Shown here: piece by piece, positions 5,146 to 63,628 of the stretch
Position numbering within the stretch: position 1 is the first letter of the stretch
How the letters are laid out: the number at the start of each line of letters is the position of its first letter
NCBI GenBank assembly: GCA_000961695.1
Contig: LADW01000003.1
Span: forward strand, 1,224-65,223
Length of the DNA: 64,000 nt
Direction: 5' to 3'
Source: Hyphomonadaceae bacterium BRH_c29
GTDB taxonomy: Bacteria > Pseudomonadota > Alphaproteobacteria > Caulobacterales > Hyphomonadaceae
Notes under the pieces: generated by a model
What the model saw: only the letters and a program-made list of their open reading frames with translations
Told to the model about the DNA's origin: nothing
Database searches by the model: none
Made by a program: the position numbers and the translations under genes

Positions 5146-5251
5146 GCCTATCATTTGATTGCTAGGAAGTCTGGAAGGGGCCCCGAGGGCTGTGCTGTAG
5201 TCTCCTCGTCGCGTACGGTCTGATTCGATAGCAATTCTCGTGGAGACCGCA

Positions 5252-5911
5252 ATGTTGTGTTTTGTAGCTCAGCCGTTCCGCGATCCGTATGATCAGCGGT
5301 TTAAAGATGTTTACGCGCCAGCATTGCGTGAAGCGGGCTTAGAACCTTACCGCGTTGATACAGACCCGGGCGTCAGCATTATCATCGATACTATAGAAGA
5401 GAAAATTCGTGAGGCTGATTTTGTCTTCGCCGACATTACGGAAGACAATCCCAGCGTGTACTTTGAAGTCGGATACGCGCGATCACAGAACAAGCCTTTG
5501 ATTTTGGTGAGGGAGCGACGACCTAGGAGGCGCCTTCCATTCGACATTCAACACCGGTTGGTAATCTATTATGGCACTGGCTCCCCAACAGCCTACGAAG
5601 ACTTGAGATCTAAGATCACAGCACGAGCAAATGCCCTAAAGAAGGAAATTAAGCCGCGGACACGCAGTCAAAGCGTCGAGGCCTACTTGGAACGGGTCAT
5701 TGCAGAAAATGTGACGCTCCATGCATCTATGGCCACACTTGAAACCGAGTTAAAGAGTTGGGCGGCGAGTGAATCGTCAGCGCGCGCGATGTTGGAAATG
5801 CAACTTGAGGAACGAAAGCCAGAAAATACGGTTGCGGCGGCAATATATGGTCAAGGGCCTTTTGCTACGGCAACGGTAGCGGAGGCAAAGGCATTACTTG
5901 GATTAGACTAA
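5252..5911 (+). CDS. Nucleoside 2-deoxyribosyltransferase-like (NDT/TIR-like flavodoxin fold) protein with C-terminal coiled coil
   Basis: CFVAQPF...IEEKIREADFVFADITEDNPSVYFEVGYARSQNKPLILV...LPFDIQH; visibly lower GC than flanks; GGAG RBS before ATG 5252. Confidence 0.8.
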   Translation: MLCFVAQPFRDPYDQRFKDVYAPALREAGLEPYRVDTDPGVSIIIDTIEEKIREADFVFADITEDNPSVYFEVGYARSQNKPLILVRERRPRRRLPFDIQHRLVIYYGTGSPTAYEDLRSKITARANALKKEIKPRTRSQSVEAYLERVIAENVTLHASMATLETELKSWAASESSARAMLEMQLEERKPENTVAAAIYGQGPFATATVAEAKALLGLD

Positions 5912-5940
5912 TTCCAATTGTGCGCCTGTTTGATTTGAAA

Positions 5941-5961
5941 TGGTGCCCGGGGGCGGAATCG
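5941..5961 (-). other. att site: duplicated tRNA 3' end (probably tRNA-Phe; tRNA-Leu not excluded)
   Basis: Reverse complement CGATTCCGCCCCCGGGCACCA = part of the T loop, T stem 3' arm, acceptor arm, discriminator A and CCA; the tRNA-like sequence stops abruptly at 5962. Confidence 0.8.
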
Positions 5962-6120: not shown

Positions 6121-9100
6121 GTGCCAAGGTCTGGACTGACTCTTGAGGACTTTTTTTCACAGCCTCTTAAGTCATCTAATATTTGGAGAGGTCGTTGCCC
6201 ACTCGCCGCGGCTCAGATTGGTGAACTCCTTGCTAGTGCGCTGCTTGAGTCCAAAAAGAGCTGTTCTGAGTTTCTGAATCGAGTCTCGAAGCGGGTGCCA
6301 TACTTGAGCGAATTCATTGACATAGAAAGGCGGTTCACGCCGCTGCTTGAAGACGAACCCTTCGACGCTTTGCTGTCGGCGCGCTGCAGCGTCATTCTCG
6401 GTATGCAGGGATCAGGAAAGACGACTGAGCTCCGCCGCGCGCGCGAGAGATTGCGGCTTGCCGGCAAGGCCTGTTTCCTGGTGCGCCTAGAGACGCTCGA
6501 GAGGCTCGGACTGAGAGACAGCTTTGATCCGGAAGACAGAGATGCCCGCAGGCGTTTTGACCTCTGGCTCCTTTCGAAGACACCTGGCATCTTTCTACTG
6601 GACGCCCTTGATGAAGCGACACTTCCGGCGGGGGCAGGCGCCGAGGTGCTGACCGGCGCGATGAGAGCGTTTGAACAAGGCGTCGGCGAGGCTGGCGGGA
6701 GATGTACGCTCGTCATCACTTCCCGGGGAAGTGAATGGGACCACGAAACGGATCGCCGTCTGCTCATGGCATTGATGAGCGATCTCGTGGGTGAGACTTT
6801 TGACAAGCTGCCCCGCGAGAAGGCGCTCAACGTGTACGCCCTTGCGGCGCTGAGCCGGCAACAGGTGGCAGCGCTCGCGACAGCCCGTGACATCGAAGGC
6901 GGCGCCTTTGTCAAAGCGATCCTCGACAATCGCTGCCAGGCGCTCGCCCGAACCCCGCTGGAAGTTGGCTACCTGTGTGATGTCTGGAAAGAGGATCTCG
7001 CGAGCGGACGTGCGTCGGCGGACAGTTTTTCGACACGGGCAAAACTCTTCGAAAGAGCAACCGAGTACAAGCTGCGTCCTCCTGCACAAGGATCAAGGCG
7101 GTCTAACTTGCCGAGGGACGCTGTCCTTGAGGGGGTTGAGGCGCTCGCAGCGGCGACGATCATCTGTGGTGTGAACGACATCTCACTGAACATGCAGACC
7201 GGTCGGGTCATCGATCCGGGAGATGTGCTGTCCGGCACGACACGAAGCTGGGCGGAATCCGAATTGCGCCAGCTCCTCAGTTTCGGATTTTTTGCGGCGG
7301 AGATTGCAGGCAGGGTCCGGTTCGCTCACCGTGAAATGCGCGACTTTCTGGCTGCGCGTTATTTCGATCACCTGATAACGCAATCCGGAGGGGCGCTCGA
7401 TTGTATTGCGCCTTTGATCGCACGGTTCGGGCAGTATGAGACCATTCCCGGCGGGTTGTACAATTTCTTTGGATGGCTTGCGACGTTCAACGCCGCCGCC
7501 AGAAGAAGGGTAATCGCCCTGTATCCGACATTGATCATGGAAACGGGCGACCCTCGTAAAATATCGCCAGACGACCGTGCCAGGGCGCTCCGGGCGCATG
7601 CCGCGGCGTACCGAGACCGGGTGTCGCGTGGTCATTATTTCTACGATGCCGATCTTGTGGCTTTTTCAACGCCCGATCTGGCGCCAACACTCGCTGAACT
7701 GTTGCGGGATGCCACATCGCCAGAACTGTTGATGCATCTCCTCGAGATCGCGAGATGCGGGCGGTTCGTCGATCTCGCCGAACCGGTCTGTCTCCTCGCC
7801 TGCGATCAGAGTCAAAAACTCAGTGTACGTACTGAAGCGCTCGCGGCGCTGCACGAGACCGGAAATGATATGGCCACTGGAAGGGCGCTCGACGCGGTCC
7901 GGCAGACCATCGCGTCCGGGGGGATCGTCTCACCGGACAGTGCCGGCCGCTGGAACGAATTCCTGATCATGGCCGCCAGATTGGCGACCGCCGGAGGCGG
8001 GCAGGTGGATTGCGCTCGCGAGTTTCTGGCGCCGTTAGCGCGCGAACGGCGTAACGGCTCTGCGATGGCTGGAAGCGTGGCAAAGACCATGGTCGACACC
8101 GATGATCCTCAGCGCCGGAACGACTGGATCGCTCTGCTGATACCGTTAATTCTGTCTGGCCGCTCCGACGATCACGGTCGCGCACCAAAGTACGTCGTGG
8201 AGCGCCTTTGCCTGCTGCCGGCTGCAGCCTCACTCCTGGCTGATCGGCTGACTTGGACCGACGATGCGGCCGTCACGCCAGAATTACTGTACCTTGCAGA
8301 AGGCTTGTGCAGCCTGACTTACGAACAGGCGCCCTACCGGTATGCCGGTGACATAAAGGGATTTGCCAAGGGCTTGGCAAAGCGATGTGACATCAAAGCC
8401 GAGATGCTGGCCAGCCGGTGGTCATCCCTTGAAGGCGATGCCCGCGGAAAGTCCTGGGATGTGATACATTATCTGGGGACGGATCGAACTGGATCGGACG
8501 AAGCCATCTGGCACGCCGGAGATGTTATCGAACAGCTGGAGCGCGCCAAGAAGGCTCAGAGCGAAGAAGACAAGGCCGCCCATTTTCACATCGCCCGGCA
8601 AATCGTCTCTGAACTGCGAAGCGATGCCGGGCGGACCGAAGCCTACGAAGCGCTTGTGGCGTTTGCGCGCCAAAGCGGCAGGAAGGATTTCAGGCGCCTT
8701 GTTGTCATGCGATGGCCTCGCCCCTTCTGGTCCTGGTGGAACCAGAACAGCTATATATTCAGATACGACCATGTAAAACGGGTTTGGCCGAGGCGGGTCA
8801 GGGACATTTGCACGCGCAGCAGGCGGCGCATCTATGATCGCTGGTACAGATTGCGACATGCGAAAAAAACAGCGCGGGGCGAAGCTGGGAACGTACTCGC
8901 TTGGGCAGGGCGGCAGCATCGGCGAGACCATGAAGACAAGGGCGTTGCTGTCAATCTCGATGTGCTCGCCAAACGATATGGCCGCACTTTCGCCCGGCGC
9001 GCAGAGGCCGGATACCGTGCGCTCTGGCGGAAGGTTCAGCCGGGCCTGCCCCTCAACTGGGGAGAGCCACTCATCGAGGCGGCGGCGCTTGGGCTGGAGC

Positions 9101-10563
9101 GCGATCTACAGCACGGCGGTACCCTGCAACCGGGTGAATCAGCGAAGGCAGCGACGATAATATTCTCCCTCTGGGGCGGCGCGCCTGACTGGGCGGGCGG
9201 CTGTCTGCCCGCGTATGCCGAGACCTTCCAGACCATTGCCCGCCCGGCCATCCGGGCGGAACTGCGACTTCCGGACGGAGATGCGCCGCGAAGCAACGGC
9301 ACAATTTCAACCATCGCCTACGGGCCGCTCCCATTCCAGGTTTTCCTTGCCAACACGCTCGTTGAGGAGCTGGTGGCATTCCCGGACGCTGCCCATGAAA
9401 CGCTTCGGCAGATACTTTCGCTGGCGTTGCATCATCAGGCGGGCGTACTCATTCCAACCGAATTCATACGGCGAATGGCGGGCGCACTCCTGGCAGAAGG
9501 CCGGTTCGAAAAAGCCTTTCTGTGGGTCGAATTCTGGCTGAGACAGGATCCGGAGGCAACCTGGGAATGGCTCGAGCCGTGGTTCGGTCTCTGGGGCCGA
9601 ACCAGTGACAGTCCTTACAGGTTCTTTCTGGCAAGCTACGGAGCCCTCGGGCAGAAGAGCCCGGGCGATCCCGAACCCAGAGAAGAATTCAGGACCTGCC
9701 CAATAGTTCTGGCTGGCTTGCTGAAGGCTGCCTATCAAGTTGCCGATCCGCGCACGGACAATATCTACGAAGACGGCTATACACCCAACAGACGCGACAA
9801 CTGCGCAGAGACCCGGCGCAATTGGCGGGAGAGATTGGGGGCGATGCAGTCGCCAGAGGCCCATTCGGCGCTTCTGGCGCTCGCCGGAGATCCGGATCTG
9901 TCGGATCATTGCAGCGATTTTCTCTATCATGCCGACCGGCTCGCTCTGGCTGCAGCGCGGCACTTCCCTATTCCAGTCGGGGAGGTACGCCATTGGCTGG
10001 CCGGGCATTCGCCGGTGCCGCACGATCGGGCGAGTTATGCGGCTTATGTTTTCCGGCTCGCCGGCGCCCTGCTCGAGCGGTTTGCACATTCCGACCATGA
10101 CGAAGCCCGGCCTTTCCGGCGGCTAAGCCGGCAGGACATCACATCGAGAGATGAAGCGGATGCCCGGAACTGGCTGAGCGCCCGTCTTGCTGAGGCCGGC
10201 GTGAGGGTTTTCGAGCCTGTCCGGGAGGCAGAAGTGGCGGAAGGCAATCGCACGGACATCCATTTGATTGCGCGGGATTCGGCGCTCGGAAAAGTCGTTC
10301 TGGAGGTAAAACTGGCAGACCGGCGACATTGGACCGGGGATATCCTAGTTTCGACTGTGGAGCTTCAGCTTCGGGACCAGTATCTCAGGGAGAATCATGC
10401 CCATGCTGGAGGGATTGTCCTTATCAATACGCGGCGGGATGGATTTGCGAAGGAGGTTGCAGGGCAGACCGTCGACTTTGATGGCCTCTGCCGCGCCATC
10501 AAAGCCCGAATAGATGGCCTTGATGACGGTAAAACCTACCGCTTGCTGGCCATTACACTTTAG
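6121..10563 (+). CDS. Large STAND/NACHT-like NTPase with C-terminal PD-(D/E)XK nuclease; candidate antiphage NLR-like protein
   Basis: Walker A GMQGSGKT, Walker B IFLLDALDE, LVITSR sensor, RFAHREMRDFLAA winged-helix motif, long helical middle, C-terminal RTDIHL...VVLEVKL. Start uncertain (GTG 6121 or TTG 6304). Confidence 0.8.
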   Translation: MPRSGLTLEDFFSQPLKSSNIWRGRCPLAAAQIGELLASALLESKKSCSEFLNRVSKRVPYLSEFIDIERRFTPLLEDEPFDALLSARCSVILGMQGSGKTTELRRARERLRLAGKACFLVRLETLERLGLRDSFDPEDRDARRRFDLWLLSKTPGIFLLDALDEATLPAGAGAEVLTGAMRAFEQGVGEAGGRCTLVITSRGSEWDHETDRRLLMALMSDLVGETFDKLPREKALNVYALAALSRQQVAALATARDIEGGAFVKAILDNRCQALARTPLEVGYLCDVWKEDLASGRASADSFSTRAKLFERATEYKLRPPAQGSRRSNLPRDAVLEGVEALAAATIICGVNDISLNMQTGRVIDPGDVLSGTTRSWAESELRQLLSFGFFAAEIAGRVRFAHREMRDFLAARYFDHLITQSGGALDCIAPLIARFGQYETIPGGLYNFFGWLATFNAAARRRVIALYPTLIMETGDPRKISPDDRARALRAHAAAYRDRVSRGHYFYDADLVAFSTPDLAPTLAELLRDATSPELLMHLLEIARCGRFVDLAEPVCLLACDQSQKLSVRTEALAALHETGNDMATGRALDAVRQTIASGGIVSPDSAGRWNEFLIMAARLATAGGGQVDCAREFLAPLARERRNGSAMAGSVAKTMVDTDDPQRRNDWIALLIPLILSGRSDDHGRAPKYVVERLCLLPAAASLLADRLTWTDDAAVTPELLYLAEGLCSLTYEQAPYRYAGDIKGFAKGLAKRCDIKAEMLASRWSSLEGDARGKSWDVIHYLGTDRTGSDEAIWHAGDVIEQLERAKKAQSEEDKAAHFHIARQIVSELRSDAGRTEAYEALVAFARQSGRKDFRRLVVMRWPRPFWSWWNQNSYIFRYDHVKRVWPRRVRDICTRSRRRIYDRWYRLRHAKKTARGEAGNVLAWAGRQHRRDHEDKGVAVNLDVLAKRYGRTFARRAEAGYRALWRKVQPGLPLNWGEPLIEAAALGLERDLQHGGTLQPGESAKAATIIFSLWGGAPDWAGGCLPAYAETFQTIARPAIRAELRLPDGDAPRSNGTISTIAYGPLPFQVFLANTLVEELVAFPDAAHETLRQILSLALHHQAGVLIPTEFIRRMAGALLAEGRFEKAFLWVEFWLRQDPEATWEWLEPWFGLWGRTSDSPYRFFLASYGALGQKSPGDPEPREEFRTCPIVLAGLLKAAYQVADPRTDNIYEDGYTPNRRDNCAETRRNWRERLGAMQSPEAHSALLALAGDPDLSDHCSDFLYHADRLALAAARHFPIPVGEVRHWLAGHSPVPHDRASYAAYVFRLAGALLERFAHSDHDEARPFRRLSRQDITSRDEADARNWLSARLAEAGVRVFEPVREAEVAEGNRTDIHLIARDSALGKVVLEVKLADRRHWTGDILVSTVELQLRDQYLRENHAHAGGIVLINTRRDGFAKEVAGQTVDFDGLCRAIKARIDGLDDGKTYRLLAITL

Positions 10564-10619: not shown

Positions 10620-10642
10620 AAATGCGACACAGGAGCAGGTTG

Positions 10643-10978
10643 ATGGCAAAGCAGACCCGAACCTATGCGGCGATGACGAAAGATGCGCTCATCCTGATGG
10701 GTAAGCAGATTCAGCTTGCCCGAAAGGCACGGCACATGTCTGCCGCCGAACTGGCAGAACGCGTCGGCGTCGCGCGCTCCACTCTCTGGCGTATCGAACA
10801 GGGGGAGCCTGGTGTCGAGATCGGACTGGTCTTTGAAGCGGCAATCCTGGCCGGTGTTCCGCTCTTCGAGAAGGCGAGTGGACAACTGACAGCCGAAATC
10901 GAACGGCTGAACGACAAGCTCGCACTGCTTCCGGCATCCATTCGCGACCGCTCTGCGGAGTTGAAAGATGACTTCTGA
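10643..10978 (+). CDS. hipB: XRE-family HTH antitoxin (HipB-like)
   Basis: IQLARKARHMSAAELAERVGVARSTLWRIEQGEPGV; overlaps the hipA start; AGGAG RBS. Confidence 0.82.
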   Translation: MAKQTRTYAAMTKDALILMGKQIQLARKARHMSAAELAERVGVARSTLWRIEQGEPGVEIGLVFEAAILAGVPLFEKASGQLTAEIERLNDKLALLPASIRDRSAELKDDF

Positions 10979-12260
10979 GGTGGCCGCTCCAGGTGAAGCT
11001 TTTGTATGGATATGGCTCCCCGGCGCGCTGGAGCCTGTTGTGGCGGGCCGGATTGCGCGGGACGGACAGCTGTTTGTTTTCAACTATGGTCAGTCCTACC
11101 TGAACCGCACGGATGCGATCTCCCTGTTACCGAACGAACTCCCGCTCCAGGCCGGGCTGCAGCGCCCGCTGGCGCCGCTCACCATGGCCGGCTGCCTGAG
11201 GGATGCGTCACCGGATGCCTGGGGGCGCCGGGTCATCATCAATCGGCTTACCGGCTTGAAGGGGCAGGCTGCCGGCGCGGTGGAACTGGGCGAGCTGACC
11301 TATCTGCTCGAATCCGGATCGGACCGGATTGGCGGACTGGATTTCCAGGCGCAGGCGGATGCGTACATTCCGAGAGGCGGGCGTGAAGCGACGCTCGAAG
11401 AGCTCCAGGCCTCGGCCGAAAAGGTACTCGCAGGTGAGCCGCTTCATCCTGAAATCGACCGTGCCCTGCATCATGGAAGTTCGATAGGCGGGGCGCGGCC
11501 AAAGGCGCTCCTGACTAATGGCGACAAGAAGCTGATCGCGAAATTCTCGGCTTCGTCGGATACCTACAGCGTGGTGAAGGCTGAATTCATCGCCATGCGC
11601 CTGGCAGCCCGGTGCGGCATCGATGCCGCACCCGTCGAACTCGTCTCGGTGTCCGGCAAGGATATCCTCCTTGTCGAGCGGTTCGACCGCGTCGCGCATG
11701 CCGGGCAATGGTCGCGCAGGATGATGATTTCTGCGCTGACGCTGTTCGGGCTCGACGAGCTTGCGGCGCGCCATGCCTCCTATGAGGATCTTGCTGAAAT
11801 CATCCGGACACGGTTTACCGCGCCTCGCGACACCTTGCACAACCTGTTCCGCCGGCTCGTGTTCAACATTCTCGTGGGCAATACGGATGATCACGCCCGC
11901 AATCATGCGGCCTTCTGGGATGGCCAGGCGCTGAGCCTGACACCGGCTTATGACATCTGTCCTCAGGCGCGCACCGGGCGTGAAGCCAATCAGGCCATGA
12001 AGGTCCACCGCGAAACGCGCCAGAGCCAGCTTGTGACAGCCCTTCGCCTCGCGCCAGCCTGCCTGCTGGATGAAGCCGAGGCGGCTCGGATCATCACTTA
12101 CCTTGTCGAGGGTATTGCCGCGATGTGGACGGAAGTTGTCGATGAAGCTGAGCTGTCCGATGTCGACAGGCGGCTGTTCTGGCGGCGCCAGTTCCTGCAC
12201 CCCTATGCATTCGAGGGCGTTGAAGGCCCACTGAGTGGCCTGGCGTGTTGGGTGGAGTAA
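10968..12260 (+). CDS. hipA: HipA-family Ser/Thr kinase toxin
   Basis: GSSIGGARPKA P-loop, LLVERFDR, NTDDHARNH catalytic loop, LTPAYD. Confidence 0.92.
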   Translation: MTSEVAAPGEAFVWIWLPGALEPVVAGRIARDGQLFVFNYGQSYLNRTDAISLLPNELPLQAGLQRPLAPLTMAGCLRDASPDAWGRRVIINRLTGLKGQAAGAVELGELTYLLESGSDRIGGLDFQAQADAYIPRGGREATLEELQASAEKVLAGEPLHPEIDRALHHGSSIGGARPKALLTNGDKKLIAKFSASSDTYSVVKAEFIAMRLAARCGIDAAPVELVSVSGKDILLVERFDRVAHAGQWSRRMMISALTLFGLDELAARHASYEDLAEIIRTRFTAPRDTLHNLFRRLVFNILVGNTDDHARNHAAFWDGQALSLTPAYDICPQARTGREANQAMKVHRETRQSQLVTALRLAPACLLDEAEAARIITYLVEGIAAMWTEVVDEAELSDVDRRLFWRRQFLHPYAFEGVEGPLSGLACWVE

Positions 12261-12265
12261 GGACC

Positions 12266-13837
12266 ATGGACGATGATCGCATCGGCACGATCGGGCAGAA
12301 TGAATTCTTCAGCCTGTGCGAACGCGAACGCCTGTATGCGTCCCGGCCCGAACCAGACCGCACCGGAAAGGATTTTATTGTCGAGTGGAAACCTGACGAA
12401 GGGAATGGATTTGATACACGGCCACCGCCGCGCAAATGCCTGGTTCAGGTCAAATCGACCCGGCTCGGATCAAGACAGGTCCGCGTGAAACTCAGCGCGG
12501 CAGAATGGCTGGCCAAGGATCTCAGTCCCGCTTTCTTTATATGTGCGGTTATTGATGAGGCGGAGACAGTCGATCACTATGTCGGATACCATATCGCGAA
12601 TGTCTGGCTGGAACGCATACTGGCATGATTGCGCAAGGCGGCAGTGGAGCGCAAAAACCCGAGTAATCTCTCCGTCACGCTGACATTGTCCAAGGGGCAC
12701 GCGTTGCCGCCGCCCAAGGTTCGGGACTGGCTGGAGGAGGTATGCGGCGCGGATATGGCTCTCTATTCAGCCGAAAAATCTCTCGCGCTGAAAACGCTGG
12801 GATACGACGATGATGGCCCTGAATATGTCATGACGTTTTCGGCGAGTAGCGTAGACGAAATCGTTGAATGCCTCCTGGGCCAGCGTGAACTGGATGCGTC
12901 TTTCGGGCCGCCGCTTCGCAGCCGGTTCGGGGTCAAGGCCGAGGCGCCGGACGAACTTGTTCTTCCGCCTGCAGGCCGGGTTTCTGCTACGCCGCGCGAT
13001 TGCGACCCGTGGGTAGCGGAGGTCCTCGACGAGGCTGGCGCTCCGCAGGCCTCCATTGAACTGAACGGTCAGACAATCGCGTTTGAAGGTCTGCCGCGAG
13101 AGCATTGGCGGTCCGAAGCGACCAACGATCTCATTCGGATTTCGATCCTGAGGCAGTCGGTAACCGTGAAATTTCTCGCCGCACAGTTGCTGGACAGGAC
13201 GCACAGTCTCGACCGGTTGATCAGGAGTGTCGAATTCTGGCTGTCATTGGTATCGTGCGGGGGCCGGTTCAGAATTCTGAAGCTGAACAGATACTCTCCG
13301 GATATGCAGATCAAGGGCATGACAAGCAATCTTGATCCCGTGCTCGAACGCGGTCTTGACCTCCTGAAGGCGGCGCGGACCCTGTATGCTTATTGTCAGA
13401 TTGATAGCCCGACAATCAGTTACGAGTCTCTCACAGAGAGGGCACGTCAAATCATCCATGCTGCCCAACAGCTCGACTTGCGTCAGGCCGCGGACTCCTG
13501 GGTTATCTGCGAGTGTCGACCTGAAAATGTAGAGGAACTTGCCGAACGGCTTTCTGGCGGCGTGACCCTACTGATGACCTTTCCTGTAGATTTGGGCGAC
13601 GACATACTCGCCTTTTCGGTTGCTTATGCGGTCCGGCCCGAATGGAGGGGAGCGACGCTGAAACTCCATGCCACGAGCCGGTTTCCACTTCGAGGTTGCA
13701 GGCTCGAGCGAAATGATCCCGTCAAGGACTATGAGTCTTTTGTCGCCGGGATTCGGGGGGAGGTGTCTCCGGCCTTGCACGCACATATCCCTTTGATCGT
13801 GATAGACGCTGAGCCAACTGCTGAGGCAGAGAGCTGA
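12266..13837 (+). pseudogene. DUF4365-like PD-(D/E)XK nuclease with a large C-terminal domain, interrupted by one in-frame TGA at 12626-12628
   Basis: ORFs 12266-12628 and 12629-13837 are contiguous and in the same frame; N-terminal DRTGKDFIVEW...LVQVKST nuclease motif. Confidence 0.7.
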
Positions 13838-14125: not shown

Positions 14126-14563
14126 CTAATTGACGGGTTGTGTGAGGCAATCGGTACCTTCTGTTGCTGTGTTGCAGATGGACGTGATGCGAAAGGACCC
14201 GTCGCGACCTCGCTTGACCATGAAAGACACCGCGTCTCCTTCTGCGAACCCCGACAGGTCGATATCATCCAGAATGCCGAATCCCATGGTCATGGCGCCC
14301 ATGTCGATGCCGTTAAACGGACCGTGCTCGATGGTCAGGAAGTCGCCGTTCTGACCAATAGACCTGATTGTGCCTGTGGCCTGACCTGAACCATTTCCCG
14401 CAGCTTCGCTGACTGCCGCAGCGTCGGGGCTGCTGCCTTCAGTTGGCATGTCGGCTGCCGCCTTTGTCGCCGGCGCCTCCGGAAAAGGTGCTTCCTGTGC
14501 TTTACCGCAGGCAGTCAGGCCGAAGGCCAGCAGGCTGGCTGCAAGATAGTTGAGGGCTTTCAT
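14126..14563 (-). CDS. cusF: CusF-like periplasmic Cu(I)/Ag(I)-binding lipoprotein
   Basis: Lipobox LTAC; TIEHGPFNGIDMGAMTMGF; overlaps the cusA stop. Confidence 0.85.
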   Translation of the reverse strand: MKALNYLAASLLAFGLTACGKAQEAPFPEAPATKAAADMPTEGSSPDAAAVSEAAGNGSGQATGTIRSIGQNGDFLTIEHGPFNGIDMGAMTMGFGILDDIDLSGFAEGDAVSFMVKRGRDGSFRITSICNTATEGTDCLTQPVN

Positions 14564-17500
14564 GGCGTTTGTCCTTCGTTTGTTGCGGGATTGATTGCTT
14601 GTCTCGGGATTGGTTGCGGGGCCGACTTTGAAAGCTGGGCTCCGACCCGGATATAATAGATCGCCGGTATGACAATGAGCGTCAGGACCAGAGTTGATGC
14701 CATCCCGCCGAGCATGGGTAGCGCGATGCGGCGCATCACGTCCGATCCGAGACCGTCGGTCAAGAAGATCGGCGCCAGTCCGACCAGCAGTGTAAAGACG
14801 GTCATCAGTTTCGGGCGGACACGCATGGCTGCGCCCCGGCCGATGGCTGCGAACAGTTCGGCGTGTGTCTGCGGGCGCGCCTTGCGCACTTCGGCGTCTA
14901 TGTAGAGCAGCATGACGATCGCCGTTTCTGCGGCGATGCCGCCCAGCGCAATGAAGCCTACGGCGACGGCAACCGACAGGTTGTATCCGGCAAGCCAGAC
15001 AGCCCAGAACCCACCAATCAAGGCAAAAGGCAGGCTGGCCATGATGATCAACGTACGATCAAGCCGCCCGAAATGCAGCATCAGGAGGAGAAAGATAAGG
15101 GCAACGGCGGCCGGGATGGCAATTGCCAGTCGGGCATTGGCCTCTTCCAACTGCTCGTACTGTCCCGAGAAGGCGACGGCATACCCGGGAGGCAGATCGA
15201 CGCCAGCGGCGACGGCTTGGCGTGCCTCAGCGACGAAGCCCCCCATGTCGCGGCCCGCAATATCGACGAACACCCACCCCGTGAGGCGTGCATTTTCAGA
15301 GCGGATCATCGGCGGACCCTCAGCATACAGAATTGTAGCGAGTTCGCCGAGCGGGATATGTGCGCCGGTTGGCGTCGGAACGAGAATGGCTTCCAGATCC
15401 TGCGGAGCCTCGCGAAACGGCCGGTCATAGCGCAGGATGATGTCGTAGCGTTCGCGGCCCTGGACCGACTGTGAAAGACGCATGCCGCCCAACGCGCTCT
15501 GCACGACGGACTGGAATGTGCCCATGTCTATGTTCCGCCGGGCTAGCTCGGCGCGGTCAGGTGTGATCTCGAGGTATTTTCCGCCGAGCACCCGATCGGC
15601 AAAAGCCGAGCGCGTGCCTGGGATATCCGCCACGACACCTTCCACTTCGCGGGCAATGCGCTCGATTTCCGAAAGGCTGTCACCGGTGACCTTGACGCCG
15701 ATGGGGGTACGCACGCCAGTGGAGACCATGTCCATGCGTATCTTGATCGGATAGCCCCAGGAGTTGACCAGTCCGGGCATTTTGAGGCGCTGGTCGAGTT
15801 CGTCCGTGATATCGTCGATGGTGACGCCCGGGCGCCAGTCTTTCTTTGGCTTCAGGCGTATCCAGGTCTCGATCATGGTCAGGGGCGCAGGGTCGGTTGC
15901 GGTGTCGGCGCGTCCGGCCTTGCCGAACACACGTTCGACTTCCGGAACCGTCATGATCACGCGATTGGTCTGACCAAGGATCTCGCGCATCTTGGTCGAG
16001 GACACGCCGGGTAGGGTCGTCGGCATGTAGAGCAATTCGCCTTCATACAGGGCCGGCATGAATTCGGATCCGATCCGCTGAACGGGGATTAAGACACTGG
16101 CGGTGAGCGCTAGGGAGATCGCGACGGTGATCCATTTGAAGCGAAGCGCAAGGTTGAGGACCGGCTTGTACGCCCAGATAAAAAAAGCGTTGATCGGATT
16201 GGCTTCCTCGCGCCGGAACCGTCCCCGCATCAGGTACAGCATGAGCACCGGTACGAGGGTCACCGACAGAAGCGCCGCAAAGGCCATGGCATAGGTCTTG
16301 GTGAATGCCAGCGGGCTGAACAGGCGGTAACTTTCGCCGGTGAGAGCAAAGACGGGCAGGAACGAGACCGTAATGATCAGCAGGGAGAAGAAAATGCCGG
16401 GTCCGACTTCCTGCGCCGCTTCGAGGAGGGCGGCGCGGCGGGTCTGCGCATCAATCCTGTCTCCGAGCTCCGACAACCGCCGACTGGCGTTTTCCACGAG
16501 TACGATGGAGGCATCGACCATAGCGCCGATCGCAATGGCGATGCCGCCAAGGCTCATGATGTTCGCCGTTACGCCCTGGAGCGACATGATGAGAAATGCC
16601 CCCAGAACCCCGAGCGGCAGGGTGATGATCGCGACCAGTGAAGAGCGGACGTGAAGAAGAAAAACCAGGATCACGAGCGCGACCACGAGACCCTCTTCGA
16701 ACAGCTTTTCCTTCAAATAATCGACCGCGCCTTCGATCAACGGCGCGCGGTCATAAACCGTCACGATCTCGACTCCTTCCGGCAACCCGCGCTGGAGCTC
16801 GGCCAGCTTGGCTTTGACCCGGTCGATCACCTGAAGCGCATTCTCGCCGTCGCGCATGACGACAATGCCGGCGACTGTCTCGCCCTCTCCGTTCAGTTCA
16901 ACGACGCCCCGGCGGAGCGAAGGCCCTTCCACTATGCGGGCAACATCGCGCAGGAGGACGGGTGTTCCGCCTTCGGCGTAGATGACCACCTCTTCAAGGT
17001 CTGCAAGTTCGTCGACATAGCCAGACGACCGGATCACGAATTCGGTTTCGGCCTGTTCCAGGACACGTCCGCCGACTTCACTCGAGGCTGCGCGGACGGC
17101 GTCGCCGATCCGCGCGATCGGGATATCGTAGCTGCGTAGAGCATTGGGGTCGATCAGAATCTGATATTCTCGCACGAAACCGCCGACAGACGCGACCTCC
17201 GCGACACCTTCGACGCCCGCGAGTTCGAGTTTCAGGAACCAGTCCTGAAGGGAGCGAAGTTGCGCAAGGTCGGTGTTTCCCGACTTGTCGACCAGTGCAT
17301 ACTGGTAGACCCAGCCGACGCCGGTCGCGTCCGGTCCGATCCGCGGCACGACACCTTCAGGCAGGGCCGAGCCCAGACGAGACAGCGCCTCCAGGACACG
17401 CGAGCGCGCCCAGTAGAGATCGACATCATTCTCGAATATGACATAGACAAAGCTCGTGCCGAACATCGAACTGGCGCGCACGTCTTTCGTCCGGGGTAGG

Positions 17501-17769
17501 CCCAGGAGATTGGCCGACAGCGGATACGTGACGAGGTCTTCGACAATCTGCGGGCTCTGTCCCGGAAAATCGGTCCGGATGATGACCTGTGTGTCCGTCA
17601 AATCGGGTACGGCATCCAACGGCGTGCGCTCCACGGCGAGCCAGCCGGCCACTGCCAGCGCGCCGGCGAGAACCAGCACAATCAGCTGATTTCTGACCGA
17701 CCAGGATATGAGGCCTGCGACCCAGGAGCGGGACGGGTCGCGGCCGGAAAGGTCGTCCTGCGTGCTCAT
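14560..17769 (-). CDS. cusA: CusA-type heavy-metal RND permease (Cu/Ag)
   Basis: LDAVPDLTDTQVII, AIGAMVDASIVLVEN, ELLYMPTTLPG, GIAAETAIVMLLY; start MSTQDD at 17769. Confidence 0.93.
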   Translation of the reverse strand: MSTQDDLSGRDPSRSWVAGLISWSVRNQLIVLVLAGALAVAGWLAVERTPLDAVPDLTDTQVIIRTDFPGQSPQIVEDLVTYPLSANLLGLPRTKDVRASSMFGTSFVYVIFENDVDLYWARSRVLEALSRLGSALPEGVVPRIGPDATGVGWVYQYALVDKSGNTDLAQLRSLQDWFLKLELAGVEGVAEVASVGGFVREYQILIDPNALRSYDIPIARIGDAVRAASSEVGGRVLEQAETEFVIRSSGYVDELADLEEVVIYAEGGTPVLLRDVARIVEGPSLRRGVVELNGEGETVAGIVVMRDGENALQVIDRVKAKLAELQRGLPEGVEIVTVYDRAPLIEGAVDYLKEKLFEEGLVVALVILVFLLHVRSSLVAIITLPLGVLGAFLIMSLQGVTANIMSLGGIAIAIGAMVDASIVLVENASRRLSELGDRIDAQTRRAALLEAAQEVGPGIFFSLLIITVSFLPVFALTGESYRLFSPLAFTKTYAMAFAALLSVTLVPVLMLYLMRGRFRREEANPINAFFIWAYKPVLNLALRFKWITVAISLALTASVLIPVQRIGSEFMPALYEGELLYMPTTLPGVSSTKMREILGQTNRVIMTVPEVERVFGKAGRADTATDPAPLTMIETWIRLKPKKDWRPGVTIDDITDELDQRLKMPGLVNSWGYPIKIRMDMVSTGVRTPIGVKVTGDSLSEIERIAREVEGVVADIPGTRSAFADRVLGGKYLEITPDRAELARRNIDMGTFQSVVQSALGGMRLSQSVQGRERYDIILRYDRPFREAPQDLEAILVPTPTGAHIPLGELATILYAEGPPMIRSENARLTGWVFVDIAGRDMGGFVAEARQAVAAGVDLPPGYAVAFSGQYEQLEEANARLAIAIPAAVALIFLLLMLHFGRLDRTLIIMASLPFALIGGFWAVWLAGYNLSVAVAVGFIALGGIAAETAIVMLLYIDAEVRKARPQTHAELFAAIGRGAAMRVRPKLMTVFTLLVGLAPIFLTDGLGSDVMRRIALPMLGGMASTLVLTLIVIPAIYYIRVGAQLSKSAPQPIPRQAINPATNEGQTP

Positions 17770-19580
17770 GGCTGCAGACCTGCCTCGGGGGCGGGCCAGG
17801 GCACGCGTTCCGTCTCGCCGTCGCCATAGGGGTTTAGCGGAGCAGTTCCCTCTTGTAGCCAGAGACGCCCGGTTTCGGTATCGCTGAACAAGCTCAGGCC
17901 GGCCTCGCGGTAGTGCACCGGCGCGCCGCCGAGTAGCCAAGGCTCGAGCGCGCTCATCAGCCGGGCGAGTTCGCCCGCGAGGGCACCGGCGTCGTCCGCC
18001 TCCTTCGCTGCGCGCAGGGCCGCTTCCGCCTCTTCAAGGATCGGCACAAGCACCGTGTCAGCAAGGCGGGTACGGAGCGCTTCGCCGAGGCCGAGCGCCG
18101 GGTCAACGAAACGCGGATCGATCCGGTAGCCGTCGATGAGGGCTTCATGGAAATAGAGCGCCATGTCTGTGAAGTGATCAATTTCGGCGAGAGTCGCCGC
18201 TTCGATCGGTAAGTCCGACAGTGGCGTTTCTGGCCCGGCTGTCATCACGGCCGGTGCCGTCAGCTTGGCGAGGCCTTCGCGAAGATTGGCTTCACTGTCC
18301 AGAAGGAACTGGCCGCTGGCGACGACCTGGTCACCGGCAACCAGGCCGGTGACCACTTCGGTTCGTCCGCCCGCGCGGACCCCTGTCGTGATCTTGCGAC
18401 CTGCGAACCGGCCACCGCCCAGTGCAACAATCACGTGTGCGCCGTCGCTGTCGCGCAGCACGGCTTCACTGGGCACCGACAGCCGGGCTTCGTCGGCAAT
18501 GTCGATCGCTATGTCGGCATAGGCGCCCGGGCGAAGATATCCCGAGCGATTGTCGACTTCGATCCGTACCTGCGCGGTACGGGTTTCGGGCTCTATGGTC
18601 GGGTAGATATAGTCGATCACACCTTGCCCCGGCGCTTCCGGCGCACTCGGATAGTCGAGCCTGACTCCAAGCCCGCTTCTGATCAGAGGCAGGTCGGTCT
18701 CCGGAATGGATGCGATGATCCAGACTCCGGAATAGGATTGCAGGCGAAGGATCGGGGTGCCTGGTTTTACATAGTCGCCCTCCCTGACCTGTAGCTCTGC
18801 AACGGTGCCGCCCGTCTCGGCATAGACCGGCACACGGTCGATGATCGCACGGGTCTCAACCAAGCGGTCAATCACCCGGTCCTGCATGCCGAGCGAGCGT
18901 AGCCGCTGGCGAACCGCCGAGATGCGGGTTGCATTGCCAATGGTCAAAGATGCCAGCATGTCCTTCTGCGCGGCGATCAGGTCCGGGCTATATACCCGGT
19001 AGAGGCGTGAGCCGGGGCGAACACTGTCGCCTTCGGCACGAACCGTAAGATCCTCGATCCAGCCTTCAAGGCGGGCAACCGAGACAGTTTCCAGGCGCTC
19101 ATTGGTCTCGACGACGCCAAATGCACGCAGGGATCTGCCGAAGGCCGCGACCTCTACGGCGGCGGTTCGAATGCCCATCGTCTGGATCATTTCGGACGCA
19201 ACAATGACGCCGGCTCCGGCGTCCGGCTCCGCGTAGACGGGTATGTAGTCCATGCCCATCGAGTCCTTCTTGGGAACGGGCGAGGTGTCGGGTTGGCCCA
19301 TCGGATGCTTGTAGTAAAGGATATCGCGGGCCGCGCCTTCAGCGGGCGCGCCGCCTGAACCTGTGACCGGGACAAGGTCCATGCCGCAGATCGGGCAGGT
19401 TCCGTTCGGGTCCGTCGAAATATAGTGCGGGTGCATCGGACAGGTATATTGAGCGGCTTCCTGTCCCGCGGCGGTCTGTCCGGAAGGGGCGGCACCTGCG
19501 GTGGCCGGGACCTTCGGGTTGCCGCATGCCGAAAGGAGTATAGCGGCCACGGGGATCGCGAGGAGGATGAGGCGGTTCAT
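17766..19580 (-). CDS. cusB: CusB-type membrane fusion protein with N-terminal CPMHP metal-binding domain and C-terminal extension
   Basis: YTCPMHP...CPICGMDLVP, YYKHPM...DSMGMDYIPVY, MFP core, ~150 extra C-terminal residues. Confidence 0.9.
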   Translation of the reverse strand: MNRLILLAIPVAAILLSACGNPKVPATAGAAPSGQTAAGQEAAQYTCPMHPHYISTDPNGTCPICGMDLVPVTGSGGAPAEGAARDILYYKHPMGQPDTSPVPKKDSMGMDYIPVYAEPDAGAGVIVASEMIQTMGIRTAAVEVAAFGRSLRAFGVVETNERLETVSVARLEGWIEDLTVRAEGDSVRPGSRLYRVYSPDLIAAQKDMLASLTIGNATRISAVRQRLRSLGMQDRVIDRLVETRAIIDRVPVYAETGGTVAELQVREGDYVKPGTPILRLQSYSGVWIIASIPETDLPLIRSGLGVRLDYPSAPEAPGQGVIDYIYPTIEPETRTAQVRIEVDNRSGYLRPGAYADIAIDIADEARLSVPSEAVLRDSDGAHVIVALGGGRFAGRKITTGVRAGGRTEVVTGLVAGDQVVASGQFLLDSEANLREGLAKLTAPAVMTAGPETPLSDLPIEAATLAEIDHFTDMALYFHEALIDGYRIDPRFVDPALGLGEALRTRLADTVLVPILEEAEAALRAAKEADDAGALAGELARLMSALEPWLLGGAPVHYREAGLSLFSDTETGRLWLQEGTAPLNPYGDGETERVPWPAPEAGLQP

Positions 19581-22169: not shown

Positions 22170-24575
22170 CTAGGCGGCGCGGTTCAGCCGCAGCGAATTG
22201 GCAATCACTGATACGGAAGACAGGGCCATCGCGGCGGCTGCGATCATGGGAGAGAGCAGAGCGCCGGTGATGGGATAGAGCACACCGGCGGCGATGGGGA
22301 TCCCGGCAGCGTTATAGGCGAATGCAAAGAAGAGATTCTGGCGGATATTCCGCATGGTTGCCCGCGAGATCGTCCTTGCCCGAACGATGCCGACCAGATC
22401 ACCCTTGAGCAGCGTGACGCCGGCACTTTCGATGGCGACGTCTGTGCCTGTCCCCATGGCAACGCCGACATCGGCGGCCGCCAGGGCAGGCGCATCGTTG
22501 ACGCCGTCACCCGCCATCGCGACGACCCGGCCTTCTGCGATCAGGCGTTTTACGATATCGGCCTTCTGCGCCGGCAGAACTTCGGCTTCGACGGATTCGA
22601 TGCCAAGCGAACGGGCAATGGCTTCGGCCGTCGTGCGATTGTCGCCCGTCGCCATGACGATGTGAAGACCAGCTTCCCGCAGGGCGTTCAAGGCATCGGG
22701 CGTGGAGTCCTTGACCGGATCGGCAATGGCAAATACCGCCCGCACGCCGTCGTCAACGGCAAGGTAGATGGCCGTCGCACCGTCGGCCCGGCGGCGTTCC
22801 GCGAGCCTGCGAAGTGTGGATGTGTCGATCGCAAGCTCGTCCATGAACCGTTCGGCGCCCAGCGCTATCTTTTGTCCCTCGATGATGCCGACGACGCCTT
22901 TTCCGGTTGGAGAGTCGAAGTCCGACGGTTCGGCGAGTGAAAGCCCTTTCGCATTGGCTGCCGATACGATGGCATCGGCCAGGGGATGCTCGCTACGGCT
23001 TTCGAGACTTGCCGCAATGCGCAAGGCATCGGATTCATCCGTACCGGGAGCGAGATCGATGCCGACAAGGGCGGGTTTGCCTTCGGTCAGGGTTCCGGTC
23101 TTGTCGATCAGCAACGTATCCACTTTTTCCATACGCTCGAGCGCTTCGGCATTCCGGATCAGAACGCCGGCGCGCGCCCCGGCTCCGACTCCGGTCATGA
23201 TCGACATCGGCGTGGCAAGGCCAAGCGCGCAGGGGCAAGCGATGATCAGTACTGACACGGCGGTTATGAGACCGTACGAGAAGGCAGGTTCCGGGCCGAA
23301 CATCAGCCAGCCGAAGAAGGCCGCGATGGCTATAACGATCACCGCTGGAACAAACCAACCCGACACCTGGTCGGCAAGGCGCTGGATTGGCGCGCGGCTG
23401 CGCTGCGCCTCTGCCACGAGATGGACGATCTGCGAGAGCATGGTCTCGCTGCCGACGCGTTGCGCCTCGACAACGAGGCTCCCGGTCTGGTTGACCGTTG
23501 CCCCGATCACCCGGTCATTCACCGATTTGGTTACCGGCATGGATTCGCCTGTCACCATCGACTCGTCTATGGAGGAGCGTCCTTCAAGGACGACACCGTC
23601 GGCCGGGATCTTTTCTCCCGGGCGCACGCGCAGTCTGTCACCGGCGACGATTGTCTCGAGCGGCACATCTTCCTCGCTGCCGTCGGCATGGATGCGGCGG
23701 GCAGTCTTCGGCGCAAGATCAAGGAGTGCCCGTATGGCGCCGCCCGTCGCCTCGCGGGCCTGAAGTTCGAGCACCTGTCCAAGCAGCACCAGCGTGATGA
23801 TGACCGCTGCGGCTTCGAAATAGACAGGTACGGTGCCATGTATCGAGCGCAGTTCGGCCGGGAAAAGGCCGGGCGAAATAGCCGCGATCATGCTGTAGCC
23901 CCAGGCCGCACCTGTTCCGAGCGCAATCAGCGAAAACATGTTGAGACTGCGATTCCGGACGGAGGCTATCCCCCTTGCAAAGAATGGCCAGCCTGCCCAA
24001 AGCACGACGGGTGTCGCCAGAGCCATCTGGACCCAGGGATTGAGCGTGGGCGGAATGATACGGTCGATTCCAAAAACATGACCGCCCATTTCGATGACGA
24101 GCAGCGGCAAGGACAGGACAAGCCCGACCACGAAGCGCTGCTTCATGTCACGCAGCTCGGGATTGGGACCGTCGCTCGCGCTCGGAGTCATTGGTTCAAG
24201 GGCCATGCCGCAGATCGGACAATCACCCGGGCCGTCGCGCACGATTTCCGGGTGCATGGGGCAGGTCCATTGGCTGCCCGCCGCCGCCTCTTTCCGAGCA
24301 GGCGCGCCATGCGAGGCATGTGAGCAGGCTGCATGGTCCTTATGGCCGGACATCTCCGGAGAGTCGGTGCCATCTCCATGTACTGGAAAGGCAGTGGGGT
24401 CGGCTTCGAACTTGCCCTTGCAGCCTGCGCTGCAGAACACGATTTCGGCGCCGTCATGGACCAGACGATGCGGGCTGTCTGATTTTGGCGTCATGCCGCA
24501 GACGGGATCACGTATGGCTTTCGCTTCGGCGGATTCGGGGGTTTCGGAGATTGGCATTACAGGCTCCTGTACCAT
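22170..24575 (-). CDS. copA: Cu(I)-exporting P1B-1 ATPase with YHS and CPMHP N-terminal domains
   Basis: RDPVCGM...[55 protein letters not shown]. Confidence 0.96.
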
Positions 24576-62150: not shown

Positions 62151-62387
62151 TCAGTCTCCTTTGCTGGCAGTGGTGGGCAGGGCCTTCCGGGCCCGTCTGA
62201 ACCCGGCATCTGACGCCAGGAACATCTCGATCATGGCGGCGGCAAGCGTTTCGCTTCGCTCGGCTTCGCCATAAGTCTCTTGGTAGACCGCCGCATAGTC
62301 CTGCAGCGCGGCCGCAGTGTCGGGATCAAGTGCGAGGGTGAGTCTGACCGGCGTGCGATCAGCGAGTTTTCCGAGGCGGAGGTTCAT
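62151..62387 (-). CDS. DUF2274-domain protein (follows trbI)
   Basis: LRLGKLADRTPVRLTL...LQDYAAVY...FLASDAGF. Confidence 0.88.
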   Translation of the reverse strand: MNLRLGKLADRTPVRLTLALDPDTAAALQDYAAVYQETYGEAERSETLAAAMIEMFLASDAGFRRARKALPTTASKGD

Positions 62388-63628
62388 TGGGCTGTCTCCT
62401 GAAAGGGACGAAGGACGAGATCCTTGGTCACGATGACACGGACGGGCCAGCCGGGGCGGATGGTGATCGAAGGCTGGACGCTGAGACTGCGATCAACGGC
62501 CCGCTGGCCCACTTCGTTGATCGTGTCGGTTGTCCCTCGGCGGATGGCGCGCTCGATGTCGCCGTCGTCCCCGGGCCCGAGTTCAGCACCGATGCCGAGC
62601 AGGGTGGCGAGACCGGCCGCTGCGAACACCTTGTCCCAGTGGTGATCGGTCCGGTCTTTGAGGCCCGCATAGCCGGAGGCATCGCTGCCCGGTTCAGAGA
62701 TCGTGATCGAGCTGCCATCGGGCATCAGGATCCGGTCCCAGACGACGAGTGCGCGGTCCTGGCCGAACGAGACCTCCGACTGGTAGCGCCCGATCAGGCG
62801 GCTTCCTTGCGGGATCAGGAGGTGCTGGCCGCGCACGGTATCGTAGACGTTCTGCGTGACCTGCGCGATGACCGTGCCTGGAAGGTCCGAGTTGATACCC
62901 GTGATGAGGCTCGCGGGGATCAGGGAGCCTGCCATCAGCTGGTAAGGCGAAAGCGGGTCCTGCACGCGGTCCGGATTGTAGACCGGGCTGGAGGCCGGCT
63001 CACGGGCAAACGCGGCCTTGCGGGACTGGAGGTTCGGGTCGGGCTCGGCGCCTGATGTGGCGTTCGGGGATTGCCGCGTGAGAGCCAGGAGCTCTGACGA
63101 CAGGTCGAAGCCGGATTCCGGTGTGCGCTGCGCTGAAGTTGGCGGCGCACCGGTCCCGCTAAGGCGGAACAGGATTGGCGCGCGGGCAGCCTCTTCAGCC
63201 TGGGCGGCGGTTTCAAGCCGCGCGGTGCGGACAGCTTCGTCTTCCGGACGCGTGCGAAAATCCGTCCGATACTCGGTCTGGAATTCTGCTTCTATACCGT
63301 AGGCCTGTTCGGCCGCGAGAATGGTAGAGCCGAGATCACCGGCCAACGGCGCCCCTAGCACGGGCACATCTGTGAGCGCCGTATAATCCGCTGGCAACGC
63401 CGAGAATCCATCGGGCTTGCGCTTGCCGGCCGTGACCAACTCTTCCTGCTGGGCGGCCTTTGCGGGGCGCGGCGGCGCAAGTGCAATTGAGGTTGCCGCA
63501 AAGAGGCCTAGCGCGCCGAGGCCTGCACCGGCCATCAGCAGTTTGCGGTTGATCCGTGTGGCGGGTTTCGGCGCCGAGCGGATCTGCAGCTGCCGGGCAG
63601 CTTCCTTGAACGGGGGAGGCTCGGTCAT
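62384..63628 (-). CDS. trbI: TrbI/VirB10 conjugal transfer protein
   Basis: SPYQLMAGSLIPASLITGINSDLPG, IPQGSRLIGRY, PSITIRPGWPVRVIV. Confidence 0.95.
   Translation of the reverse strand: MTEPPPFKEAARQLQIRSAPKPATRINRKLLMAGAGLGALGLFAATSIALAPPRPAKAAQQEELVTAGKRKPDGFSALPADYTALTDVPVLGAPLAGDLGSTILAAEQAYGIEAEFQTEYRTDFRTRPEDEAVRTARLETAAQAEEAARAPILFRLSGTGAPPTSAQRTPESGFDLSSELLALTRQSPNATSGAEPDPNLQSRKAAFAREPASSPVYNPDRVQDPLSPYQLMAGSLIPASLITGINSDLPGTVIAQVTQNVYDTVRGQHLLIPQGSRLIGRYQSEVSFGQDRALVVWDRILMPDGSSITISEPGSDASGYAGLKDRTDHHWDKVFAAAGLATLLGIGAELGPGDDGDIERAIRRGTTDTINEVGQRAVDRSLSVQPSITIRPGWPVRVIVTKDLVLRPFQETAQ

Follow-up and report, generated by a model that had tools for sequence, protein, structure and literature searches.

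The 64,000-nucleotide stretch of contig LADW01000003.1 analyzed here (the window) comes from Hyphomonadaceae bacterium BRH_c29 and contains a large open reading frame (ORF) at 6121..10563 on the + strand. A first-pass annotation of the DNA described its product as a STAND/NACHT-type NTPase with a C-terminal restriction-like nuclease. The question raised by this locus is whether the gene encodes an antiphage receptor and whether such a receptor would be of a new kind. The window protein is a divergent member of the HyoA/EruA superfamily, which is already described and has been validated elsewhere, and it is not a new kind of system. In its general mechanism, it is probably a stand-alone antiviral STAND (NLR-like) receptor with an NTPase switch, a helical sensor, and a C-terminal DNase.

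Family assignment

The window protein matches the NCBIfam (release 20) model NF058534, "NACHT domain-containing antiphage protein HyoA", with an E-value of 3.6e-143 and 479 bits. The match spans amino acids (aa) 82-1463 of the protein and positions 34-1406 of the 1430 in the model. The EruA model (NF058535) is matched more weakly (E 5.9e-41, 141 bits), its best stretch being aa 157-592, and the HyoA and EruA models are homologous to each other via the window protein. The equivalog cut-offs, 1200 bits for HyoA and 1000 bits for EruA, are not reached. The HyoA scores of six relatives from other genomes, 513-591 bits, are likewise all under the cut-off. Because these scores are so far below the cut-offs, the window protein and the sampled relatives are full-length homologues of the described proteins and not equivalogs.

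HyoA is probably Hypnos and EruA is probably Erebus, given the names themselves, the shared naming as NACHT antiphage proteins, and the mutual homology of the models. The names Hypnos and Erebus come from van den Berg et al. 2024 (Cell Host Microbe), as cited in PMC13581612. Erebus, Hypnos, and bNACHT64 are grouped as Avs10 by Lee et al. (Nature 2026; PMC13581612). Phage protection and trigger-dependent, effector-requiring cell death are reported for exemplars of the family; Avs10 is activated by the phage major capsid protein, and its toxicity is abolished by mutation or deletion of the effector (PMC13581612). Protection against Hypnos is reported for Bdi1, an inhibitor encoded by a phage (PMC12390725).

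The NTPase-sensor-nuclease architecture is thus not new and is that of Hypnos/Erebus/bNACHT64 (Avs10). The window protein shares with them end-to-end homology to HyoA, a length class of ~1,430 aa, and a single-gene organization, as well as the succession of N-terminal NTPase, long helical sensor, and C-terminal domain. It differs from Hypnos and Erebus in belonging to a separate, mainly alphaproteobacterial and environmental clade, with 479 bits against the 1200 of the cut-off. The antiphage role proposed in the first-pass annotation is supported by the full-length matches to the HyoA and EruA models and by the defence-gene neighbours of relatives described below.

The ORF is uninterrupted and translates into 1480 aa from a GTG at 6121, the coordinates including the stop codon, and there is no longer ORF nearby. 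In a word-indexed search, full-length homologues are found at E-values of 0 to 1e-150. The nearest are 63%, 35%, and 29% identical, each spanning 95-96% of the length. Since full-length homologues exist, the ORF is a real gene and not a product of chance, and the 1480-aa reading of the first-pass annotation stands. Most homologues, however, begin ~60 aa downstream, and the alignment with the closest relative, P0002, opens at L62. The true start may therefore be the GTG at 6295 (V59) or the TTG at 6304 (L62), both verified as codons on the + strand (6295..6306) at the point where the homologue alignment begins; this would give a protein of ~1,420 aa. A promoter-like match lies at 6156-6183, within the N-terminal extension and upstream of the alternative starts, but such matches are no more frequent than in shuffled sequence.

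The family is large. Exhaustive HMMER searching of the whole library with a profile of aa 300-1480, counted as cluster representatives, returns 6,661 matches at E<=1e-3 and 2,008 at E<=1e-30. Of the 150 best matches among the 6,661, nearly all are ~1,400-1,500 aa long and cover the profile almost entirely. The idea of a rare family, which came from the 9 relatives returned by the word-indexed search, is overturned by this count. As an observation on method, the word-indexed search alone would badly misjudge the rarity of the family. The C-terminal alignment, used as a profile in the word-indexed database, gave zero matches, family members included.

Among species-representative genomes, relatives occur mostly in Alphaproteobacteria. 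These carriers are Hyphomonadaceae, Mycoplana, Paracoccaceae, Celeribacter, Mameliella, Litoreibacter, Maricaulis, Pseudochrobactrum, and Sinirhodobacter; Pokkaliibacter and Glaciecola are carriers outside this group. Plasmids of Rhizobium, Sinorhizobium, and Phaeobacter contain full-length copies annotated as "hypothetical protein", and one predicted viral contig contains a fragment. PHROGs has no match for the window protein. Whether the query is the protein alone or the full-length profile, searches of PDB sequences return generic P-loop matches only.

The NTPase module

Residue conservation was assessed in an alignment of 34 diverse members, 33 of which cover each position quoted. The Walker A motif, or P-loop, is GMQGSGKTT (aa 94-102; 6400..6426, + strand), where G99 and K100 are invariant (33/33) and G97 is kept in 32/33. 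The Walker B motif is of the NACHT type and reads IFLLDALDEA (aa 157-166; 6589..6618, + strand), with D161, D164, and E165 invariant in 33/33. Both were placed by script; the first lies exactly where the first-pass annotation had put it and the second encloses the LDALDE that had been noted. Downstream is the sensor-1 strand VITSRGSEW (6712..6738, + strand), whose R202 and W206 are likewise found in 33/33. The winged-helix motif RVRFAHREMRDFLAA (7312..7356, + strand) contains H403, present in 27/33 relatives, and resembles the NLR motif FxHxxxQEFLAA. From this resemblance of motifs, H403 is presumed to be the counterpart of the nucleotide-contacting His of NLRs.

In the NACHT signature, a tiny residue follows the Walker B Asp and an acidic pair stands two positions on, giving D-[GAS]-h-D-E. 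The D161-A162-L163-D164-E165 of the window protein fits this signature, for which the aligned relatives have the majority consensus DSVDE. The features that define STAND proteins are present: a P-loop Walker A with an hhhhD Walker B, a sensor-1 Arg, and a winged-helix His. As judged from these motifs, STAND membership of the window protein is solid. Assignment to the NACHT clade is more qualified and rests on the motif signature and on NCBI naming, not on a significant Pfam match. Pfam NACHT (PF05729) matches the window protein with E 0.096 and 13 bits, against a cut-off of 26.7 bits.

The relatives give a similar picture. At E<=0.01, Pfam NACHT matches 2 of the 34 relatives and nSTAND_NTPase5 matches 10; AAA_16 and HEAT_2 match 4 each, and NPHP3_N and nSTAND3 match 3 each. 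The nSTAND5 NTPases (PF25199; Kaur et al. 2020) are thus the commonest Pfam match of the relatives (10/34, best E 1.5e-6), whereas the window protein has no match to them at E<=0.01. The STAND/NACHT-type NTPase of the first-pass annotation is upheld by the D-[tiny]-h-D-E Walker B, the TSR of sensor-1, the FxHR..FLAA motif, and the STAND Pfam matches of relatives. The P-loop is 35-95 residues from the N-terminus, depending on which start is used. This leaves no room for an N-terminal effector domain, so the NTPase does lie at the extreme N-terminus with either candidate start, with no effector domain before it.

The helical sensor region

The presumed helical-repeat sensor region comprises aa ~480-1335 (7558..10125, + strand) and is the least conserved part of the protein. 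Mean pairwise identity is 0.32 in the nucleotide-binding domain, 0.30 in the helical/winged-helix part, and 0.32 in the C-terminal domain. In the three helical segments of aa 481-1335 it is 0.20-0.23, so the helical middle is ~10 points less conserved than the NTPase module and the C-terminal domain. A conserved switch and a conserved output around a diversifying middle is what would be expected of a pathogen sensor. The ~900 aa of helical sequence described in the first-pass annotation are borne out in part. Residues 1180-1335 model as helices and HEAT_2 is found in 4 of the 34 relatives, but the model begins only at residue 1180.

The C-terminal domain

The C-terminal domain (10126..10560, + strand) is PD-(D/E)xK-like, as indicated by invariant residues, an AlphaFold2 model, and Foldseek, and is the presumed effector. 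Eight of its residues are invariant in 33/33: E1345, E1369, D1379, E1395, K1397, Q1416, Y1421, and G1430. The E/D/ExK/Q set is therefore kept as strictly as the Walker motifs. The RTDIHL and LEVKL strings that the first-pass annotation had placed in the last ~150 aa were located by script at aa 1377-1382 (10249-10266, + strand) and aa 1394-1398 (10300-10314, + strand). The window protein has RTD at D1379, where the family consensus is RPD...IExK.

Two models of this part of the protein were compared with known structures. The first covers aa 1180-1480 and has a predicted local distance difference test score (pLDDT) of 80, with helices followed by an alpha-beta-beta-beta-alpha-beta unit. Its best match in the PDB is NucS (2vld; probability 0.95, E 0.025), with McrC, EcoO109I, and Card1 lower down; the helical N-terminal part of this model accounts for the weakness of the fold matches. 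The second model is of aa 1330-1480 alone and was made with AlphaFold2 from a 32-sequence alignment. It has a pLDDT of 89.5, a predicted template modelling score of 0.84, and an alpha-beta-beta-beta-alpha-beta core composed of helix 16-30, strands 35-38, 51-55, and 62-69, helix 77-92, and strand 98-107. In this model D1379 (model residue 50) heads strand 2, E1395 and K1397 (residues 66 and 68) are in strand 3, and Q1416 is in the helix after strand 3.

Foldseek with the second model again places NucS 2vld first in the PDB (probability 0.99, E 1.3e-3, template modelling score (TM) 0.40), and McrC, BstEII, and EcoT38I are also among the top 12. Against predicted viral structures, a Mrr-type restriction endonuclease is matched with probability 0.99, E 1.1e-2, and TM 0.50. 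The other named viral matches include a Holliday-junction resolvase, a RecB-family nuclease, an exonuclease, and a cyanophage restriction endonuclease, and almost all named matches in this viral set are PD-(D/E)xK nucleases. At the sequence level, the C-terminal profile finds nothing meaningful among PDB sequences, and no solved structure is matched.

NucS/EndoMS and RecB/Mrr-type PD-(D/E)xK nucleases are the best fold match and share the E...D...ExK...Q..Y arrangement. Similarity to NucS/EndoMS is at the level of fold only, with 16-17% identity and TM ~0.4, and the Q-to-Y spacing of the window protein is five residues. Taken together, the fold of the model and the invariant residues point to a PD-(D/E)xK nuclease as the likeliest identity of the domain. 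The first-pass annotation had made its nuclease claim refutable by the fold, and the domain models as restriction-endonuclease-like with an invariant E...(P)D...ExK...Q.

A C-terminal effector has parallels and differences among described receptors. In some bacterial NACHT proteins, according to Kibby et al. (bioRxiv 10.1101/2022.07.19.500537), the effector comes after the repeats, at the very C-terminal end of the chain. bNACHT25 (Kibby et al. 2023; Conte et al. 2025) is, like the window protein, a NACHT-type STAND with a restriction-endonuclease-fold effector, and a hyperactive His mutant of bNACHT25 shows nuclease-dependent toxicity (bioRxiv 10.1101/2022.07.19.500537). Its nuclease, however, is an N-terminal Mrr-like domain and it senses through DnaJ, whereas in the window protein the nuclease-like domain is at the C-terminus and has no match among Pfam nuclease families. 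Avs1-4 and Avs7 (Gao et al. 2022; Lee et al. 2026) follow the same one-protein logic of STAND NTPase, sensor, and nuclease. In these proteins a TPR-like sensor wraps a conserved phage protein and the nuclease is activated by tetramerization. They differ from the window protein in having N-terminal Cap4 or Mrr nucleases and in belonging to different NTPase and sensor clades, and PADLOC gives no sequence match between them.

Proposed mechanism

The window protein would act as follows. At rest, the N-terminal NACHT-type NTPase would be locked. The helical-repeat region of ~850 aa would then bind a phage protein, by analogy with Avs10 likeliest an HK97-fold major capsid protein. Binding of this ligand would lift autoinhibition and allow nucleotide exchange and ATP-dependent oligomerization. 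The oligomer would cluster the C-terminal PD-(D/E)xK domains into an active DNase. Degradation of phage and/or host DNA would abort the infection, probably at the expense of the cell. Defence activity, oligomerization, and DNase activity are all inferred for the window protein. That its own trigger is the major capsid protein is a tentative proposal drawn from the Avs10 analogy. The first-pass annotation had proposed the order NTPase-sensor-nuclease, which holds, and a probably uncharacterised trigger. The latter does not hold for the family, where the capsid protein is reported, but it does hold for this clade.

Gene neighbourhood in relatives

When 20 loci and the window are compared, only the large gene is conserved. 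As there is no conserved neighbour, the system is a single-gene one. Some relatives are found in defence-gene surroundings. Their neighbours include AbiEii with a helicase-PLD pair and a Mokosh-like helicase with an Rhs toxin. A further setting is a P4-like integrase/primase island that also contains a Schlafen/AlbA gene and a deoxyribosyltransferase.

Four Rhodobacterales loci have a gene of ~195-197 aa directly upstream of the STAND gene and on the same strand (L007 280-873, L010 7387-7968, L012 399-986, and L018 3658-4245), which is absent from the window. The L007 gene matches Pfam Mrr_cat, a restriction endonuclease family (E 4.6e-9), and those of L010, L012, and L018 are linked to it by blastp. 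This Mrr_cat gene may be a clade-specific partner or may just reflect shared synteny. Two other neighbours are of note. In a Hyphomonadaceae metagenome-assembled genome, a 1311-aa ORF with no Pfam or PADLOC match (L004 3949-7884) ends exactly at the start of the STAND gene. In the locus of P0002, a 527-aa gene with no Pfam match (L001 12322-13905) begins 2 nucleotides past the stop codon. Both may be lineage-specific operon partners.

A probable integrative conjugative element

The left boundary of the element that contains the gene is marked by a 21-nucleotide remnant of a tRNA 3' end (5941..5961, - strand). This remnant comprises T-loop, T-stem, acceptor, and CCA, occurs once in the window, and represents the left attachment (att) site. 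The reverse complement of 5941-5961 is CGATTCCGCCCCCGGGCACCA, the tRNA 3' end including CCA. In two metagenome runs from other groundwater (X14 and X17), contigs with the gene depart from the window exactly at 5938, and their flank beyond this point is absent from the window. The remnant and the contig break support the claim that this is the first gene inside att and, more broadly, that it is att-proximal cargo of an integrative conjugative element (ICE). The window holds no second att copy; a direct-repeat scan of its whole length finds only imperfect chance repeats, and ARAGORN finds no complete tRNA in it. The element extends past the window, which contains neither the right att site nor the integrase nor the intact tRNA.

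Directly downstream of the STAND gene is a HipB-like helix-turn-helix antitoxin (10622-10978, + strand), which overlaps a HipA-family kinase toxin (10968-12260, + strand; HipA_C E 3.9e-52, with a weak match to PADLOC candidate PDC-M03A). These are followed by a 402-aa ORF (12629-13837, + strand) with no Pfam, NCBIfam, or PADLOC match. It is kept with the element in other metagenomes, being covered by runs X14 and X20. Metal-resistance genes, including copper/metal efflux operons, dominate the cargo at 14000-61000. Among them are several resistance-nodulation-division (RND) efflux pumps, of which the one at 14560-17940 has an ACR_tran match and the others are putative, and a heavy-metal P-type ATPase at 22170-24575. 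Further cargo consists of HlyD/CusB-type fusion proteins, a CusF-like protein, an outer-membrane factor, and HupE/UreJ.

A TrbI/VirB10 conjugation protein is encoded at 62384-63628 on the - strand (E 3.1e-63). Its presence means that the element is conjugative or is derived from a conjugative element. Plasmid homologues of TrbI found by tblastn are at most 44% identical and taxonomically uninformative, and megablast of the region against plasmids gives no match. The sequence occurs in rock-porewater, subsurface, and groundwater metagenomes. The gene is present at ~100% of sampled words in at least 11 rock-porewater/subsurface metagenome runs (X1-X11) from several studies, and a soil metagenome contains diverged copies of 90-95% identity. 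The element has a wide distribution among subsurface communities.

Just outside the element boundary is a gene for a 223-aa TIR/nucleoside 2-deoxyribosyltransferase-like protein (5240-5911, + strand). Its product has weak matches to Pfam Nuc_deoxyrib_tr and TIR_2 and a PADLOC TIR-effector match (E 4.7e-7). The gene is within the lowest-GC kilobase of the window (0.53) and may be a separate small defence or NADase-like gene.

Alternative explanations

Several observations weigh against an antiviral receptor with a C-terminal DNase. The HyoA score of the window protein is far short of the equivalog cut-off and those of the six relatives are all under it, so function and trigger are extrapolated from deeply diverged proteins, the sensor having ~20% identity. 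Literature searches for HyoA and EruA found nothing relevant, and the equation with Hypnos and Erebus rests on resemblance of names and on model homology. Pfam matches on the window protein itself (ORC-CDC6-like, AAA_22, AAA_18, and NACHT) are all sub-threshold. The PADLOC check suggested in the first-pass annotation returned no match for the protein in PADLOC v2, which probably predates these systems. For the C-terminal domain, Foldseek against PDB and viral structures gives no match at E<=1e-3 and TM-scores of at most 0.53, AAA+ and caspase alpha/beta folds appear at E-values like those of nucleases, and no Pfam nuclease family matches any of the 34 relatives. The literature examined on Avs10 contains no description of its effector domain. 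Many relatives are located among housekeeping genes, and no RNA run is among the sequencing runs with the gene.

A receptor of the same architecture whose clade senses a non-capsid phage, plasmid, or ICE protein, or a host perturbation, is somewhat unlikely but has points in its favour. The sensor is ~20% identical across the family and 18-27% identical to relatives outside the nearest clade, the distance from the HyoA threshold is shared by the window protein and all six tested relatives, and the proteins sensed by published bacterial STANDs with related NTPases are many and varied (PMC13581612). Set against this, the HyoA profile aligns unbroken through the whole sensor region, which suggests that the fold of the sensor is conserved, and Lee et al. 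2026 defined their Avs families by sensor structure (PMC13581612). A stronger version would make the window protein, P0002, and the ~35% clade, including the Hyphomonadaceae metagenome-assembled genome, a distinct non-capsid sensor class with an uncatalogued NucS-like, QxxxxY PD-(D/E)xK family. This is unlikely. In such a class, activation geometry would differ from that of the N-terminal nucleases of Avs1-4 and Avs7 because the C-terminal domain follows the sensor. The C-terminal domain might also not be a killing effector but a DNA-binding/regulatory module or an inactive nuclease fold, with the protein acting by ligand sequestration or factor recruitment. The weak fold matches, the lack of a Pfam nuclease match, and the separate small Mrr_cat gene upstream in four Rhodobacterales loci would fit this. 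It is nevertheless highly unlikely, as 33/33 relatives keep the complete catalytic-type set of E, (P)D, ExK, and Q, no other domain of the protein is a candidate effector, and there is no conserved partner gene.

The remaining alternatives concern the genomic setting. A STAND NTPase could serve the mobile element, through competition with conjugative elements, addiction, or regulation, and not phage defence. The gene is the first cargo gene of a probable ICE and stands beside HipBA, several relatives are among housekeeping genes, and STAND clades switch between defence and non-defence roles (PMC13581612). This role is very improbable given that the protein contains neither a helix-turn-helix nor another domain for regulatory output, shows homology to NCBIfam "antiphage" models, and has several relatives in defence-gene neighbourhoods. 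ICE cargo regions are, moreover, known to carry defence systems. A two-gene system with the TIR/nucleoside deoxyribosyltransferase-like gene at 5240-5911 is suggested by adjacency, shared strand, the PADLOC TIR-effector match, and the weak Pfam matches, but it is rejected as extremely improbable. The att remnant and the contig break-point (5938-5961) are between the two genes, which places them on different DNA segments and means that they are not partners, and no relative shares this neighbour. A stand-alone antiviral receptor is the preferred explanation.

Significance

Work on the Hypnos/Erebus-type family has until now concerned Pseudomonas and enterobacteria. The window protein opens no new immune category, and its main points of interest are the uncatalogued C-terminal nuclease-like domain and a possibly different trigger. 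The conserved positions provide a residue map for the switch and the effector, composed of K100, D161 and E165, H403, and E1369, D1379, E1395, K1397, and Q1416. This locus extends an experimentally validated antiphage STAND family to uncultured subsurface bacteria and to a probably conjugative metal-resistance element.

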